Of a DNA stretch of 50,359 bases, positions 4,639 to 10,317 are shown piece after piece (positions within the stretch are counted from its first letter, which is position 1; each line of letters starts with the position of its first letter). The stretch is taken from positions 1 through 50,359 of the forward strand of contig JBBSLZ010000001.1 in assembly GCA_038233435.1 (NCBI GenBank), given 5' to 3'. This DNA comes from Chthoniobacterales bacterium. GTDB lineage: Bacteria; Verrucomicrobiota; Verrucomicrobiia; Chthoniobacterales; UBA10450. The translations under genes were made by a program, and so were the position numbers. The notes under the pieces are model-generated. The model saw only the letters and a program-made list of their open reading frames with translations, was not told the origin of the DNA and ran no database searches.

Positions 4639-5267
4639 CTAGAGCGTCTTCAGGTATTCAAGCAGATTCTCTTTCTTCTTCCGGCGTAAGGGTGGTGCCG
4701 TAGAGATGGCCGCCATTCCCGTTCGCCCGGCGGCTGGTCTCGAAGAGGAAGAACGGCTGATGGGGCTCGCCGGCGGAAGCCGGGCTGATTGATCAGGCCC
4801 GCCACCCGGAAACGATCGGCGCACGGATACTTCCGGTTATCCAAAGCTTTGAGCAGATCCATCATCTCGTAGCCGCCCTGCGCCACGCGATTCCAGAAGT
4901 GTTCGTTCCCGGCCGACCAGAGATTCCAGGCATTTCGACCCATGATCTCGTCGGGCGTGAGCGCGATTCCGCCATCCATTTTTTGGAACACATCCGCGGC
5001 CACCTGGGGGAAACCGGCGGTCGATTTGCCGGCGAGTTTGGCTTCGTCCTTGTAGGTTTTCTGCCAGCAGCCCGTGCTCAAAGCGAGCGGCAGCGCGAAT
5101 GCGCAAGCCCGTGCTCCGACTCGTCGGAAAAGCTTCACAGCAAGCCGATTGTCTTGGGAACTAAGGTTCCCGGCAAGCACATTTTCGCGTCGCGCGCGCC
5201 CCCGGTGAAAGAGGCGGCTGATCGTGCCGATAAAAACTGTTTTTATGGCATTGACGGATTCGTTCAT
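4639..5267 (-). pseudogene. Decayed lipoprotein / cytochrome-c(-peroxidase)-like gene relic
   Basis: The N-terminal part is intact, with a lipobox (LALSTGC) and GRNAWNLWSAGNEHFWNRV. After ...GLINQPGF the sensible reading needs two frame changes within about 200 nt (EPHQPFFLFETSRRANGNGGHLYGTTLTPEE, then KKENLLEYLKTL*). That tail resembles a haem-protein C-terminus. The total is far too short for such a protein, so a large internal deletion is implied. Confidence 0.4.
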
Positions 5268-5316
5268 GCCCCTTCAGGATGAGCGTCGGTGGACAATTTT
5301 TCTGGAAAACACTGAA

Positions 5317-6474
5317 ATGAATCCCCGCCAATCCGTCACTCGCAACCCTCAAGAGCGCCAGAACCAGACACTCAGAGCATGTTTTCGCCCGTCCAGGCTT
5401 TTTATGAGGGCTGGTTTAATCGGGGTTTTTCTTGGCTCGATGCTTTGCAGGATGGAGACGGCATGCGCGGGCGTGACGTTTGATCTGCAGGCCGAGAATA
5501 ACATTCCGCTGTTGCCTTACGGAGAGGATCGAATGCGGGTCCGGTTCAGCACCGTCGGCGCGGGCAATGGCAACGAAGTAGAGTTTATCGTAAGTAATCG
5601 CTCAGCCGGCGAAAAGTGGGAGGCCGCCGAGTTCTGGGGCGTCTACTGGGACGTGCCGCCCGTGAGTGGCACGGCGGTACTCAATTCATTCGGCACCCCT
5701 CTTCGCTTCACCGCGACCGCAGAGAAAGCACCCGACAGGCCATGGCAACAGGTGATTTTAGTCAGACTAAGCTATTTCCCCAACGGCGCTCCACCGGCTA
5801 ACATCACTCCAGGCGATCAGAAAGTGGGAGGTAGCTCGTGCGGATCCAGCGCCGGGATGGCGCGCTACACGGTCGATGCCAAAGAAGTGAGCTTGAATGT
5901 GCAAGATACTCCGATCGGATATTCGCCCCCACGGGGGCCAGCGATGAATTTCACTGTCACCTATAATCAACGGGCGGACCCACCACCGTTAGCGTTCAAC
6001 TACTCCAACTTGGGGCCGAAATGGACCACAAATTGGGTTTCGTACGTGGTTGAGGATGCGCCCGATCAACGACCATCTACGAAAGTTTTCGTGCCCGGCG
6101 GAGGCGCGGAAGCGTACTCGTATCAGTTGCCTTCCACGACGTCGGCACCGCACCCACAGAGTCACGCCATCCTTGTGCGACTTGAGGCCGGAAGTTACGA
6201 AAGGCGCCTCCCCGACGGTTCCAAGCAAGTCTATGCCAAAACAGACAACGGCGCTGGCTACCCCAGGAAGGTATTCATGACTGAGTGGATTGACCCCACC
6301 GGCAGCTCCGCAACGCTCAGATACGATGATAACAACTCCCCATTTCCTCTGCGTCTAAAAGGGATGATCGATGATCTGGGCCAGGAAACAACGCTCAGCT
6401 ACAACGAGGCTGATGATCCGTATACCGCGAATACGATTCAAATCGGCGATTGTCCCCAAAGTGAAGGATCCTGA
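5317..6474 (+). CDS. Rhs/YD-repeat toxin, N-terminal segment (frame 1), interrupted by a frameshift
   Basis: A signal/TM-like N-terminus (MRAGLIGVFLGSMLC) lies downstream of ATG 5317. It contains the Rhs N-terminal region (SLNVQDTPIGYSPPRGPAMNFTVTYNQR...NLGPKWTTNW) and a first YD-like repeat (DDLGQETTLSYNE). The frame ends at 6474 while the repeats continue in frame 2. The start codon is uncertain (5224, 5317 or 5404). Confidence 0.7.
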   Translation: MNPRQSVTRNPQERQNQTLRACFRPSRLFMRAGLIGVFLGSMLCRMETACAGVTFDLQAENNIPLLPYGEDRMRVRFSTVGAGNGNEVEFIVSNRSAGEKWEAAEFWGVYWDVPPVSGTAVLNSFGTPLRFTATAEKAPDRPWQQVILVRLSYFPNGAPPANITPGDQKVGGSSCGSSAGMARYTVDAKEVSLNVQDTPIGYSPPRGPAMNFTVTYNQRADPPPLAFNYSNLGPKWTTNWVSYVVEDAPDQRPSTKVFVPGGGAEAYSYQLPSTTSAPHPQSHAILVRLEAGSYERRLPDGSKQVYAKTDNGAGYPRKVFMTEWIDPTGSSATLRYDDNNSPFPLRLKGMIDDLGQETTLSYNEADDPYTANTIQIGDCPQSEGS

Positions 6475-9010
6475 GAATCGCATCACGCAATACGACTGGT
6501 GTTCGTGCGGCTCGCTCGGGAGCATCACCGACGCCTTGAATCGCACCACGACCTTTTACCGTGATCTGCAGGGCCGCGTGACACGCAAGGAGTATGGGGA
6601 GATTAATGGGGGACAGGGAGTTAATTATCTTTACGAAGGCCAGACGCCGACAAATCCTGTCGGCTCGACCGGCCGTCTCGCTTCGATGACGGATGCGAAG
6701 GGGCAGCGGACGAACTATCGATACGGCATCGACGATAATATCGAAGAAATTAGTTACACAGATTCTTCCGGCGCTCCGCTCTATCCCGTTACGCCGAACG
6801 TCTCCTACGGTTATGATCCGAATTACAGCCGGCTTACGTCGATGGACGATGGCACAGGCCACACGGATTATTCCTATCATTCAGTGGGCTCTGGCGCGGC
6901 CCTTGGAGCCAGTCGGCTCGCAACAGTAGACGGGCCGCTCGGTGACGATGTGATTAGGTACACCTACGACGAGCTGGGGCGCATAGGAAGTGATTCCGTC
7001 AACGGGACAGGTACGAGCATGATCTACGATGCTTTGGGCCGAATCACCAAGACGACCACTCCCGTTCTCGGCGGAGATTTCCCCCGCACCTACGATTACG
7101 TGACGGCTCGACTCGAATCAGTCACAGCTCCAAATGGCCAGGTGGCGACCTATCATTATTTGGGCGGGACCCAAGACCGCCGGCTCGAATACATGGAGAG
7201 CCGCCAGAGCGGAGGGACAAATTTGTCGCGCTTCGACTACACCTACGACCCGGAAGGCGAGATCAAGTCGTGGACGAAGCTGTTGGGCGCCGCTTCCTCA
7301 GGCCTCTGGTTCCAATACGACGACGCCCAGCAACTGCGAGGCGTCCAAAACGCTGCCAACGCGAACCTTTCTACTGCCGACTCCGTCTTCGACTATGATA
7401 AGGCTGGAAACCGGACGCTCGACTCGCTGACGAATCCGCAGCTCGCGGTCCCCAACGGCGCGGTGCATGCATACACTTCCAATGAATTGAATCAGCTCAC
7501 TGATGTCACCCACACGGTCAACGGGGTTATTTCCGATACTTTCCCGATTCTGTACGATCTGAATGGCAACATGACCTACGATCCGGCCGGTAAAACGTTC
7601 GAGTGGGATGCGGCCAACCGGCTGATTGCGATCAATTACATCAATAACGGAAAACGCTCCGAATTCGCCTACGACGGGGCGAACCGGCGGACGAAAATAA
7701 CGGAGAAAGGCGCGGGGCAGACGGCGGTCGCGCAGCCGGCCGGGAATGCCTACAGCGATTTTGCCACCGCGGCCTTCAGCGCCACGGCGGGAAATTATAC
7801 CATCCGGTTCGAGGGCCTCGAAGCTGCAATGGGGAGTGCGGTTCTGATCGACGAGGTGCGTTTAAATAACGTTCTGGTCGGCAATGGAAGCTTCGAGACG
7901 CCAGAGCCCCTCGGAGACGAAGGGGAGGTTTACAATCCAGCCGGCGCCAGTTGGACGTTTGAGGGCGACGCAGGGGTAGCCCGGGCTTGGAGCGGGCTGA
8001 CCGACGGGAACGCGAGTGCGCCGGGAGGCGCGCAGGTGGGTTTTGTGCAAGGTGATTCGGGCGTGATTCGGCAAACGGTCAACCTCGGCGCCGGAGCCTA
8101 CACGCTGGCATTCAAAGCGGCGCAGAGCGCGGGGAACAAGATGCCGCAGCGGGTGCGGGTGACGATTGAGAAGATCGGCCAGAGCATGAGCGTGCAGCGG
8201 TATGTTTGGGATGGGACGAGGATCGCGGAAGAGCGCGATGGCACCGGGGCGAATGTGACAAAACGGTTCTATCCGGACGGCGAGCAGCGTTTAAACGAGA
8301 AGACCCTGGCCATGGAGCCGTTCTTCTACACCCGCGACCACCTCGGAAGCATCCGCGAAATGACCGATGCGAGCGGGGCACTACGGGCGCGCTACGATTA
8401 CGAAGTCTGGGGCAATTCGGCCGTCGTGGAGGGCGACATGAGCCTGGACTTCGGCTACACTGGGCATTATTTCCACGCGCCCAGCGGGCTGAATTTAACG
8501 CTTTATCGAGCCTACGGCCCGGCTATGGGACGTTGGCTAAGCCGCGATCCTATCGGCGAGGCAGGCGGGATCAATCTGTATGGATACGTGGATAATAGAC
8601 CTTTGACCCACATCGATCCCGAAGGACTAGCGAGTCTAAATCTCTTTGAACCTACTGATCCACTTCATACTTATGCTAATCGCCAGCCTTCGACACCTGG
8701 TATCTTCAATGTAGCCGGACATGGAGGGCCCGGCTACGCATGGGATTCGAACAGCTCTTTGTTGCCTCCCGTGAAGCTGGCAAACCTGATTCTTACATCG
8801 CCGAATTATCATCCTGGCGACGTCCTTGTCCTCGATGTCTGCGACGCCGCTACGCCGCGGTCTGATGGAAAACCGAGCTATGCTGAAGCCGTTGCAAACG
8901 CCTTGGGAAGACCGTTGTTCGCACCGAATACTAAGGTAACATACGATGGAAATGGCCACGTTGCACCCTCGGGAGACAATGGTGGCTATCTAAAGGTCAA
9001 ACCCCGTTGA
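6371..9010 (+). CDS. Rhs/YD-repeat toxin, main body with RHS core and C-terminal toxin tip (frame 2)
   Basis: Many YD repeats (YDALGR, YTYDELGR, YDPAGK, FAYDGANRR). RHS-associated core: YDYEVWGN...GYTGHYFHAPSGLNLTLYRAYGPAMGRWLSRDPIGEAGGINLYGYVDNRPLTHIDPEGL. A 126-aa tip follows. The real coding sequence probably joins the previous ORF near 6440-6460 rather than starting at 6371. Confidence 0.85.
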   Translation: MIWARKQRSATTRLMIRIPRIRFKSAIVPKVKDPENRITQYDWCSCGSLGSITDALNRTTTFYRDLQGRVTRKEYGEINGGQGVNYLYEGQTPTNPVGSTGRLASMTDAKGQRTNYRYGIDDNIEEISYTDSSGAPLYPVTPNVSYGYDPNYSRLTSMDDGTGHTDYSYHSVGSGAALGASRLATVDGPLGDDVIRYTYDELGRIGSDSVNGTGTSMIYDALGRITKTTTPVLGGDFPRTYDYVTARLESVTAPNGQVATYHYLGGTQDRRLEYMESRQSGGTNLSRFDYTYDPEGEIKSWTKLLGAASSGLWFQYDDAQQLRGVQNAANANLSTADSVFDYDKAGNRTLDSLTNPQLAVPNGAVHAYTSNELNQLTDVTHTVNGVISDTFPILYDLNGNMTYDPAGKTFEWDAANRLIAINYINNGKRSEFAYDGANRRTKITEKGAGQTAVAQPAGNAYSDFATAAFSATAGNYTIRFEGLEAAMGSAVLIDEVRLNNVLVGNGSFETPEPLGDEGEVYNPAGASWTFEGDAGVARAWSGLTDGNASAPGGAQVGFVQGDSGVIRQTVNLGAGAYTLAFKAAQSAGNKMPQRVRVTIEKIGQSMSVQRYVWDGTRIAEERDGTGANVTKRFYPDGEQRLNEKTLAMEPFFYTRDHLGSIREMTDASGALRARYDYEVWGNSAVVEGDMSLDFGYTGHYFHAPSGLNLTLYRAYGPAMGRWLSRDPIGEAGGINLYGYVDNRPLTHIDPEGLASLNLFEPTDPLHTYANRQPSTPGIFNVAGHGGPGYAWDSNSSLLPPVKLANLILTSPNYHPGDVLVLDVCDAATPRSDGKPSYAEAVANALGRPLFAPNTKVTYDGNGHVAPSGDNGGYLKVKPR
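8630..9007 (+). other. Variable C-terminal toxin domain of the Rhs protein (family not recognised)
   Basis: It begins immediately after the DPxGL cleavage motif. Sampled 60-nt lines give about 47% G+C, against about 65% in neighbouring genes. It contains VAGHG (His codon 8720-8722) and LVLDVC (Cys codon 8840-8842). Confidence 0.7.
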
Positions 9011-9351
9011 GCTACTTCGTGAAACTGTCGTTTTGGCGGGGTGTTGCAGCTCTGATTATCTGCGCGCTCCTGTTATTGGTGGTCACGATGTGCGTCCGGA
9101 ACCGGACAATTCTTCCTTCGGATCGGTCAAGTTTGACGCACGATGAGATCGAAACGCTGACGCTGTCAGCAAACGCCGGTGACAGTACTGCGGCTCGTCG
9201 GTTAAGTAGATTTTATCTAGACATGGAGGGTAATGGGGTGCGTGCGTATTATTGGATGCGCCGCGCAATGGAGCTGGGCGATCCGAGGGCCGAAGACGAT
9301 TTGCAAGCCCTTCGTGAAATTTTTCCAGAATTACAGGGAGAAGCCGAGTGA
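9007..9351 (+). CDS. Candidate Rhs immunity protein: N-terminal TM helix plus Sel1-like repeat
   Basis: 114-aa ORF. Its TTG start (or GTG at 9019) overlaps the rhs stop (TTGA). TM segment VAALIICALLLLVVTM. Sel1-like repeat AARRLSRFYLDMEGNGVRAYYWMRRAMELGDPRAEDDL. G+C is lower than the surroundings, and the position is the typical one for an immunity gene. Confidence 0.6.
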   Translation: MSYFVKLSFWRGVAALIICALLLLVVTMCVRNRTILPSDRSSLTHDEIETLTLSANAGDSTAARRLSRFYLDMEGNGVRAYYWMRRAMELGDPRAEDDLQALREIFPELQGEAE

Positions 9352-9405: not shown

Positions 9406-10317
9406 GTGGGCTGCACCTTCCAGCAGCGCCGCGAGCACGAAGTGATGGACGAAGACTGGAGTGTCTCGCCTGTGACGCAGCGCCTCCGAGACAAGGCTTG
9501 GTCGCAGCTCGGCACGAGTGGAAGCGGGAACCACTTCGTCGAATTCGGCGCGTTTAAGGTAGCGCAAGCTTCCAGCTTGCTCGGGAACGACGACTGCAAG
9601 CTGGAAGCTTGCGCTACCTTGCCGCCCGGCGAATACGTGGCGCTCCTCACTCACAGCGGCTCGCGCGGGACGGGGGCCCAGGTTTGCCAGCACTACAGCC
9701 GGCTGGCGATGGAACGGCACCCGGAGTTGCCGAAAGAGCAAAAACACCTTGCCTGGCTCTCGCTCGATGAGGAAGCAGGCCAGGAATATTGGAACGCGAT
9801 GAACCTGATGGGTCACTACGCGGCGGCGAACCATGCCCTCATCCATAAACACATCGCGCGCTCGTTAGGCGCGCGCGTCGTCCTCGAGAACCATCACAAC
9901 TTCGCCTGGAAAGAGCGCCACCTGATCGCGGGCGAAGAACGCGCAGTGATCGTGCACCGTAAAGGCGCCACGCCAGCCGGCGTGGGCGTGCTCGGCATTA
10001 TCCCGGGCACAATGGCGTCGCCCGGTTTCCTCGTGCGCGGCAAAGGCCAGACCGAATCGCTCGCCAGCGCCTCGCACGGCGCGGGCCGCGTTATGAGCCG
10101 CACGAAGGCGAAGCAATCGTTTACCTGGAGCGCGGTGAAGAAGCTGCTCGCCGAGCGCGGGGTCACGCTGCTCTCCGCCGGACTCGATGAAGTGCCCGGC
10201 GTCTACAAAGACATCGACGCCGTCATGGCCGCGCAGACTGATTTGGTCGAGGTGCTCGGCCAATTCGATCCGAAGCTGGTTAAGATGTGCCCCGCCGGCG
10301 AGCGGGCGGAAGATTGA
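9406..10317 (+). pseudogene. rtcB: RtcB RNA ligase, 5'-truncated (about 110 N-terminal residues missing) with an in-frame palindromic insertion
   Basis: Conserved RtcB blocks are present: GSGNHFVEFG, HSGSRGTG, NHHNFAW, HRKGATPA, IPGTMASPGFLVRG, SASHGAGRVMSRTKAK, PGVYKDIDAVMAAQTDLVEV. GSGNHF sits at about residue 48, whereas in E. coli RtcB (from memory) it is at about 160. The N-terminal metal-binding region is therefore absent. Confidence 0.75.
9556..9620. repeat. REP doublet inside the rtcB reading frame (25-nt perfect inverted arms, 15-nt spacer)
   Basis: AAGGTAGCGCAAGCTTCCAGCTTGC at 9556-9580. Its exact reverse complement is at 9596-9620. Each arm is GTAGCG plus the hairpin GCAAGCT-tcc-AGCTTGC. 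Confidence 0.9.

Follow-up and report, generated by a model that had tools for sequence, protein, structure and literature searches.

A putative clan-CD-type Cys-His tip on an Rhs protein and a candidate Sel1-repeat immunity partner in a Chthoniobacterales bacterium

The DNA analysed here, positions 1 to 50,359 of contig JBBSLZ010000001.1 from a Chthoniobacterales bacterium (assembly GCA_038233435.1), is referred to as the window. It encodes an Rhs protein with a 126-residue C-terminal tip, here predicted to be a toxin, and directly downstream a small protein with a hydrophobic anchor and a Sel1-like repeat, the candidate for its immunity partner. The pair had been noticed in a preliminary description made by reading the letters without database searches. 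The locus consists of the following features, the open reading frames being abbreviated ORFs.

5224 to 6456, forward strand: N-terminal part of the Rhs gene, in frame 1, with a weak Pfam RHS_repeat match.
6454 to 6457, forward strand: frame break (+1) in a homopolymer of four C, where the ORFs at 5224 to 6474 and 6371 to 9010 overlap in different frames.
6458 to 8629, forward strand: Rhs/YD-repeat shell, Pfam RHS_repeat E 9.8e-20 in six stretches.
8630 to 9010, forward strand: C-terminal tip, 126 residues plus stop, predicted toxin with a minimal clan-CD-type Cys-His domain.
8720 to 8725, forward strand: His31-Gly32, predicted catalytic histidine and oxyanion-hole glycine, at the end of strand 25-30.
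8840 to 8842, forward strand: Cys71, predicted nucleophile in a C-x-x-G/A motif, at the end of strand 65-70.
9007 to 9351, forward strand: immunity candidate, 114 residues, with a hydrophobic anchor at about 9040 to 9096 and one Sel1-like unit at about 9154 to 9321.
9406 to 10317, forward strand: 5′-truncated rtcB remnant, the Pfam RtcB match starting at profile position 131 of 426.

The ORF at 6371 to 9010 on the forward strand has a product of 879 residues. Residues 677-753 form the Rhs-associated core (8399 to 8629; TIGR03696, Rhs_assc_core, E 5.5e-21), which terminates in the autoproteolysis motif DPEGL at 8615 to 8629 and is followed by 126 unrelated residues. The end of the core at residue 753 sets the coding span of the tip as 8630 to 9007. 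His31, in the segment IFNVAGHG, and Cys71, in VLVLDVC, are 40 residues apart. The motif, the length of the tip and the codons of the two residues (8720 and 8840), as given in the preliminary description, are borne out base for base. Comparison of the tip itself with Pfam, NCBIfam, PADLOC and the sequences of the PDB gave no match.

A word-index search for homologues, whether the query was the tip or a profile of 62 sequences, recovered P0001 as the sole relative, with 56% identity. An exhaustive hidden Markov model search with a two-sequence profile gave 427 relatives at E ≤ 1e-3, 44 of them at E ≤ 1e-10, the relatives being representatives of clusters at 50% identity. Most of this family lies outside the Pfam, NCBIfam and PADLOC models. 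Over 162 copies of the domain His31 is retained in 157, Gly32 in 153 and Cys71 in 158; the preliminary description had made the dyad depend on its conservation among homologues, and the histidine and cysteine are each kept in about 97% of the copies. Further well-conserved positions are G74, A85, Q86, L88, A89, V96, A98, P99 and G109. Judged from the sequences, with 427 relatives and a near-invariant His-Gly...Cys, the tip family is beyond chance.

In the majority of relatives the domain is terminal and stands after DPxGL. RHS repeats occur in several of those scanned against Pfam, P0039 carrying DUF6531 in addition. Giant relatives of 1,200 to 6,600 residues possess the domain two to five times, and in the four giants scanned against Pfam it lies alongside kinase-like, ADP-ribosyltransferase (ART), RelA/SpoT or amidoligase modules. 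Alignment of 68 Rhs tips with 36 internal copies using hhalign gives a probability of 99.9% and an E value of 2.6e-35 over 117 columns, indicating that the Rhs tips and the internal polytoxin copies are one family. Several Cys-His copies are seen in each of the giants P0003 (3184 residues), P0014 (2773 residues), P0017 (1217 residues) and P0004 (2161 residues), the kinase-like modules in this group being PI3/4-kinase- or Fam20C-like. The layout of the giants resembles that of MARTX polytoxins, with several putative self-cleaving units.

The order and spacing of the dyad had been likened to those of clan-CD peptidases such as caspases, gingipains and legumains. Peptidase_C80, CHAT and Peptidase_C13 are families of this caspase-like clan. 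When the 62 members of the alignment were compared with Pfam one by one (E ≤ 1), nine matched DUF4347 (best 3e-5), five Peptidase_C80 (best 1.5e-3) and three CHAT; these were the only families matched by more than two members, and Peptidase_C13 was matched by one (E 5.5e-3). All the member matches are sub-threshold. Weak matches to SurE and to Ntox37 (E ≥ 0.11) were judged to be noise.

Comparison of the family profile with the PDB sequences places the legumain HaAEP1 (PDB code 6AZT) at the top, with an E value of 0.15 over 47 residues. The H-G of the profile aligns with SNHG and the C-x-x-G with EACESG. In HaAEP1 the catalytic residues are His178 and Cys220, and Gly179 belongs to the oxyanion hole (PMC5834244), so the conserved H, G and C of the family fall on these three positions. 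The resemblance to the legumain and GPI8 group (peptidase C13) covers the patterns x-H-G-G-P and L-x-x-C-x-x-G, which match SNHGGPG and LEACESG of HaAEP1, although it is confined to those 47 residues and that E value.

An AlphaFold2 model of the tip, calculated from the 62-sequence alignment, has a predicted local distance difference test score (pLDDT) of 97.6 and a predicted template modelling score of 0.90. The model displays a β-α-β core, with strand 25-30 leading to His31, helix 47-55, strand 65-70 leading to Cys71, helix 84-92 and strand 96-99. The segment SYAEAVANALG, earlier taken to be helix-like, corresponds to the predicted helix of residues 84-92. The model shows the clan-CD order, in which a histidine with a small residue after it precedes the cysteine and both catalytic positions stand at the C-terminal end of a parallel β-strand. 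A Foldseek search of the PDB with this model, as had been suggested in the preliminary description, returned almost exclusively clan-CD entries among the top 40. The best match is the RTX cysteine protease domain (CPD) of V. cholerae, with E values of 6.6e-3 to 3e-2, probability 0.99-1.0 and a template modelling (TM) score of approximately 0.5 normalised on the query. Other matches are the V. vulnificus CPD, GPI8, the Craspase TPR-CHAT protein, plant legumains, caspase-8, caspase-3, CED-3 and the TcdB CPD. An initial model from a two-sequence alignment (pLDDT 72) had given a mixed list of Rossmann methyltransferases and clan-CD proteins; the methyltransferase reading disappeared with the model of pLDDT 97.6.

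The best structural matches, 3eeb, 3gcd, 3fzy and 8yjc (probability 0.92-1.0), are InsP6-activated CPDs of family C80, known from Vibrio MARTX toxins and from Clostridioides TcdA and TcdB. The likeness extends to the His-then-Cys order after adjacent parallel strands and to the location of relatives of the tip between effector modules. The tip, however, has 126 residues as opposed to about 200-250, leaving little room for a β-flap or an InsP6 site, and it is predicted to be a terminal cargo with an immunity gene, aimed at bacteria, rather than a releasing module. The dyad, the Pfam matches, the legumain alignment and the Foldseek search thus agree on clan CD, an assignment from sequence and model that we consider supported although none of the four lines is individually strong. 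This upholds the dyad of the preliminary description.

We take the tip to belong to Tox-Caspase, a class defined in silico only, to which it was matched by description. Members of Tox-Caspase share a caspase-like fold bearing H and C and are mostly releasing peptidases, some C-terminal copies being probable toxins (Zhang, de Souza, Anantharaman, Iyer & Aravind 2012, Biol Direct 7:18; PMC3482391). The same authors describe repeat arrays in giant ART-bearing toxins of actinobacteria, delivery by type II, type VI or type VII secretion systems (T2SS, T6SS, T7SS) or PVC, and the immunity families Imm36 and Imm57; Sel1 proteins are not listed (PMC3482391). The present family likewise has a caspase-like H...C domain terminal in a polymorphic toxin, relatives that are internal or arrayed in ART-bearing giants, and both Sec and T6SS contexts. 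It differs in that its partner here is an exported Sel1-repeat protein and not Imm36 or Imm57. Literature searches for an experimental study of a Tox-Caspase, or of a clan-CD T6SS effector with its immunity protein, found none. PA0256 of P. aeruginosa, a DUF4347 protein, is an Hcp-bound putative T6SS effector without an immunity candidate (PMC8262886). Relationship to DUF4347 (PF14252) is seen in the giants P0003 (56.9 bits) and P0052 (24.6 bits), which reach the Pfam threshold of 24.6 bits, and in the nine sub-threshold members mentioned above, whereas the window tip has no DUF4347 match at E ≤ 1. The earlier statement that the tip matches no toxin domain with a name holds for its own profile matches, which are nil, but not for its family, which is of the Tox-Caspase class and homologous to DUF4347-type domains.

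Clan CD includes transamidases and ligases, so peptidoglycan- or transpeptidase-type chemistry has also to be considered. The Cys-His domain would then be something other than a simple endoprotease; it might break or rejoin the stem peptides of peptidoglycan or the tethers of lipoproteins, or serve as a transpeptidase or ligase in the manner of GPI8 and the plant asparaginyl endopeptidase (AEP) ligases. Such enzymes are among the structural matches (GPI8, 7wld_K; AEP ligases, 6l4y and 5h0i), and a periplasmic site is typical of effectors directed at the cell wall and membrane. The closest relatives in sequence are, however, repeated internal polytoxin copies, of the kind read by Zhang et al. 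as releasing, self-cleaving peptidases, and the closest solved structures are self-cleaving CPDs. We judge this chemistry unlikely. The conserved dyad together with the fold indicates a cysteine peptidase.

The start of the ORF at 9007 to 9351 overlaps the TGA stop of the toxin gene (9008-9010) by TTGA, as the preliminary description had noted. Translation would begin at this TTG, an alternative being the GTG at 9019. The window protein alone compares with Pfam Sel1 at E 0.14, below threshold. A family profile constructed from five sequences (A3) gives an E value of 1.2e-19 to 8sxq and matches nine more solved Sel1-repeat proteins, and on this profile evidence the neighbour family is one of Sel1-repeat proteins.

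A small exported Sel1-like neighbour is encoded in six other loci, representing five distinct contexts (the loci with such a neighbour are L001, L002, L003, L004, L008, L009 and L012, a duplicate context being discounted), and a locus scan with the close tip pair gave one Verrucomicrobiae locus. In L001 and L002, where the gene follows P0001, and in L003, with a Verrucomicrobiae homologue, the next gene encodes a protein with a transmembrane segment and a Sel1-like unit, that of L001 being 35% identical to the window candidate. In L004, after P0008, the neighbour is a 97-residue lipoprotein with an LIGC lipobox and 28% identity to the window protein. The neighbours in L008 (93 residues, with a signal- or lipoprotein-like start) and L009 (132 residues, with a cleavable signal peptide, FNA/KSQ, and a Pfam Sel1 match at E 8.7e-6) are similar in plan, and that of L012 is a lipoprotein (LCSC) with two Sel1 units, found at E 3e-10 with a family profile built without it. 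The L013 neighbour, a lipoprotein that looks Sel1-like by eye without statistical support, was not counted. This recurrent small exported Sel1-like neighbour is the new part of the finding. The synteny backs the toxin and immunity reading made earlier, and the product of 9007 to 9351 is the candidate cognate immunity protein.

There is precedent for Sel1-like proteins encoded beside antibacterial effectors, as in T6SS immunity of the P. aeruginosa PA5087 type and in Sel1E, the K. pneumoniae Sel1-repeat antitoxin for the T6SS effector VgrG4 (PMC7108748). The proteins described here differ from these in their very small size (93-140 residues, with one or two repeats), in bearing a signal peptide, a lipobox or an anchor, and in their partner, which is predicted to be a Cys-His peptidase and not a toxin of the DUF2345 or phospholipase type.

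The signal peptides and lipoboxes carried by homologues, including the one in the VgrG-PAAR-linked locus L009, would place the immunity domain outside the cytoplasm. Since the immunity family is exported or lipid-anchored, the site of action of the toxin is probably the periplasm or the envelope, a view to which we lean by a little more than even odds. The same fold and dyad could instead serve in the cytoplasm if the window protein were anchored N-out/C-in with a cytoplasmic Sel1 domain. Most characterised Rhs tips do act in the cytoplasm, the hydrophobic anchor appears uncleaved in the window protein and in the L001 and L003 homologues, and in L001 the positive charges K17 and R21 are located after the anchor. 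Cytoplasmic action is nevertheless improbable because the immunity homologues of L004 (LIGC), L012 (LCSC) and L009 (FNA/KSQ) begin with lipoprotein or Sec signals, so that their conserved Sel1 unit would be extracytoplasmic, and the immunity protein is exported even in the T6SS-linked L009, where the toxin is without a signal peptide.

The tip and the immunity gene together have a G+C content of 52.8% compared with 62.3% for the window, in which only 0.1% of 722-bp segments are as low; the lower value noticed earlier in sampled lines is therefore real. At third codon positions the tip has 46.8% G+C and the shell 69.2%. The rtcB remnant, at 63.9%, is host-like and forms the right-hand edge of the low-G+C cassette. 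From the drop in G+C and this adjoining remnant the pair is taken to be a distinct insert with a sharp right edge. A scan of metagenomes with the end of the shell, in answer to the proposal that the same shell be sought with other tips, yielded one distant fragment only. The composition break and the truncated rtcB are the sole basis for proposing a recent cassette exchange.

A non-toxic role should also be weighed, in which the tip is a leftover self-processing peptidase and the Sel1 gene encodes an accessory protein or chaperone. The majority of Tox-Caspase domains are taken to be releasing peptidases (PMC3482391), and repeated internal copies predominate in the giant proteins. Release at DPxGL is, however, already performed by the Rhs core, the domain is terminal and the sole cargo both here and in dozens of Rhs proteins, and tip and small neighbour travel as a low-G+C unit, which is the pattern of a toxin/immunity cassette. 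We regard a leftover peptidase as very unlikely.

Some further observations concern mobility and the organisation of related loci. Inside the rtcB remnant, from which roughly the first 130 residues are missing, there is a 25-nt perfect inverted repeat (9556-9580 and 9596-9620) with a 15-nt loop, in-frame and unique in the window. Genes for Y1_Tnp tyrosine transposases, of IS200/IS605 type or REP-associated, follow closely downstream on the toxin and immunity genes in L004 (6006-6935), L007 (4915-5913) and L009 (7572-8408); their presence in three unrelated loci may be linked to cassette mobility. A search around the Y1 transposase genes in related loci gave no hairpin resembling the 25-nt palindrome of the window. 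Mini-toxins of about 190-196 residues, at 9797-11761 of L003 (metagenome-assembled genome contig CAVXQL010000012.1) and at 2986-3943 of L001, consist of a signal peptide, the last 40 or so residues of the Rhs core ending in DPLGL, and a tip, with no Rhs shell. Two of them stand in tandem with different tips. These shell-less proteins nevertheless appear to be secreted. In L001, L002 and L003 a Transglut_core2-like gene lies next to the mini-toxins, and the first two of these loci also have a phage-type integrase.

Turning to the remainder of the Rhs gene, the ORF at 5224 to 6474 opens with a signal-peptide-like segment (...MRAGLIGVFLGSMLCRMETACA/GV, read by eye), followed by the first YD-type repeats. 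Both pieces, 5224 to 6474 and 6371 to 9010, match the 1756-residue Rhs protein P0059 with order preserved, residues 383-594 of which are the alignment partner of the N-terminal part. Removal of one C at 6454-6457 creates an unbroken ORF of 1261 codons with the signal-peptide-like start, and residues 195-732 of the repaired product align with 383-950 of P0059 across the junction. The restored frame and the alignment that crosses the junction indicate that the gene is split by a single-base frameshift, which the preliminary description overlooked in assuming one Rhs protein with both the N-terminus and the tip. The Sec-like N-terminus that it reported is present, but on the ORF at 5224 to 6474, out of frame with 6371 to 9010. 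As far as the sequence goes, the frameshift is either a sequencing or assembly error or a real inactivating mutation.

A real mutation would leave the cassette non-functional in this genome, with the Rhs gene a pseudogene. Such decay would be in keeping with the separation of the signal-peptide region from the shell and tip by the +1 shift and with the truncation of the adjacent rtcB. On the other hand, assembly errors typically take the form of one base in a homopolymer, no further stop interrupts either half across 1261 codons, and the closest Rhs relative, P0008, retains an open frame of 851 residues without the N-terminal part. Loss of function in this genome is possible, although we rather doubt it. 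The window Rhs protein and P0008 are 46% identical over the whole length, shell and tip included. P0008 (L004, 2693-5248) begins where the second ORF of the window begins, lacks the N-terminal signal and plug region, and has a gap of 390 bp upstream; it is either naturally short or 5′-truncated.

An insert in the shell just before the core, at about 7874-8197 (residues 502-609 of the ORF at 6371 to 9010), weakly resembles the choice-of-anchor-C model (TIGR04362, E 2.6e-5, well short of the cutoff). Related Rhs proteins have other inserts near the same position, a Dockerin in P0039 and a Golvesin_C in P0085. The insert may serve to bind a surface or a receptor, which would matter for delivery without a T6SS.

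Pfam scans of the 30 large ORFs in the 50-kb window found no T6SS, PAAR/DUF6531, VgrG, hcp or tss genes, in agreement with the preliminary description. The same scans identified LpxB, a lipid A acyltransferase and a TonB-dependent receptor, indicating that the host is diderm. In the L009 relative VgrG and PAAR are encoded upstream, DUF6531 is present and the toxin itself is without a signal peptide. The suggestion of T6SS-independent delivery is consequently plausible here, given the signal-peptide-like N-terminus and the lack of T6SS genes, but does not extend to the tip in general, which is T6SS-linked in L009.

We now consider how the system might work. The best explanation, to which we assign a probability of about 0.7, is an Rhs cassette with a clan-CD cysteine-peptidase toxin and an exported Sel1 immunity protein, acting in the periplasm or envelope. 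The YD-repeat shell would enclose the 126-residue tip and the Rhs core would free it after DPEGL, by analogy with characterised Rhs proteins, since shell and core are of the standard type. In a neighbouring cell His31 would act as general base and Cys71 as nucleophile, with Gly32 contributing the oxyanion hole, and at least one target protein would be cleaved. The membrane-anchored Sel1 protein would bind and block the tip. The Rhs protein encoded here would be delivered through Sec and without a T6SS. Tip and immunity gene would have been acquired as a pair by recombination, as suggested by the lowest G+C content in the window and the abutting truncated rtcB. The analysis establishes where the domains begin and end, how large the family is, that the dyad is conserved, a likeness in fold, the Sel1 nature of the neighbour family, the synteny and the break in composition; proteolysis, toxicity, protection, compartment and delivery route are all things that we infer.

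Several observations weigh against this explanation. The window tip has no Pfam match, to DUF4347 and Peptidase_C80 included, at E ≤ 1, the top PDB match of the profile has an E value of 0.15, and the Foldseek E value is never ≤ 1e-3 at a query-normalised TM score of about 0.5. The tip is about 75 residues shorter than the solved CPDs and part of the canonical fold must therefore be missing. Since there is no match at E ≤ 1e-3 and in view of this shortness, we call the modelled tip a minimal clan-CD-type domain and not a member of C80, C13 or C14. Three related loci have different neighbours, namely L005, with transmembrane and zinc-ribbon proteins, and L007 and L011, whose neighbours are of no clear type. 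The anchor of the window immunity protein looks uncleaved and its topology cannot be fixed from the sequence. Finally, the frame of the Rhs gene as sequenced is interrupted between the N-terminal delivery signal and the shell, with the possible consequence that the cassette no longer works here.

A more ambitious reading joins these elements, and we put it forward tentatively, at somewhat less than even odds. The locus would then represent the first tractable case in which a minimal, cofactor-independent clan-CD peptidase, with a core of about 110 residues, serves as an interbacterial toxin that acts in the periplasm. Exported Sel1 proteins with one repeat would form a family dedicated to neutralising it. 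In evolution it would be an offshoot of the self-cleaving peptidases that release the parts of giant polytoxins, turned into the weapon itself. Its target would be a protein or peptide of the envelope not yet known to be attacked by a toxin.

Since clan-CD domains were predicted as polymorphic toxins in 2012, there is an in silico precedent for this kind of toxin. The recurrent exported Sel1 partner is new, as is the periplasmic target that it implies. The only experimentally flagged relative, the DUF4347 protein PA0256, is without a known immunity gene or activity. Genome annotation currently misses the family because most members lie outside the Pfam, NCBIfam and PADLOC models. This locus and its relatives provide a small system open to experiment, with a predicted toxin of 126 residues for which two point mutants are obvious and a proposed immunity factor of about 100 residues, together with a high-confidence structural model and a specific prediction of periplasmic action. 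No current idea is overturned, and the system is well suited to examining a putative caspase-like interbacterial toxin by experiment for the first time. For the family as a whole, the finding suggests how a module with which giant toxins process themselves can be put to new use as the payload.

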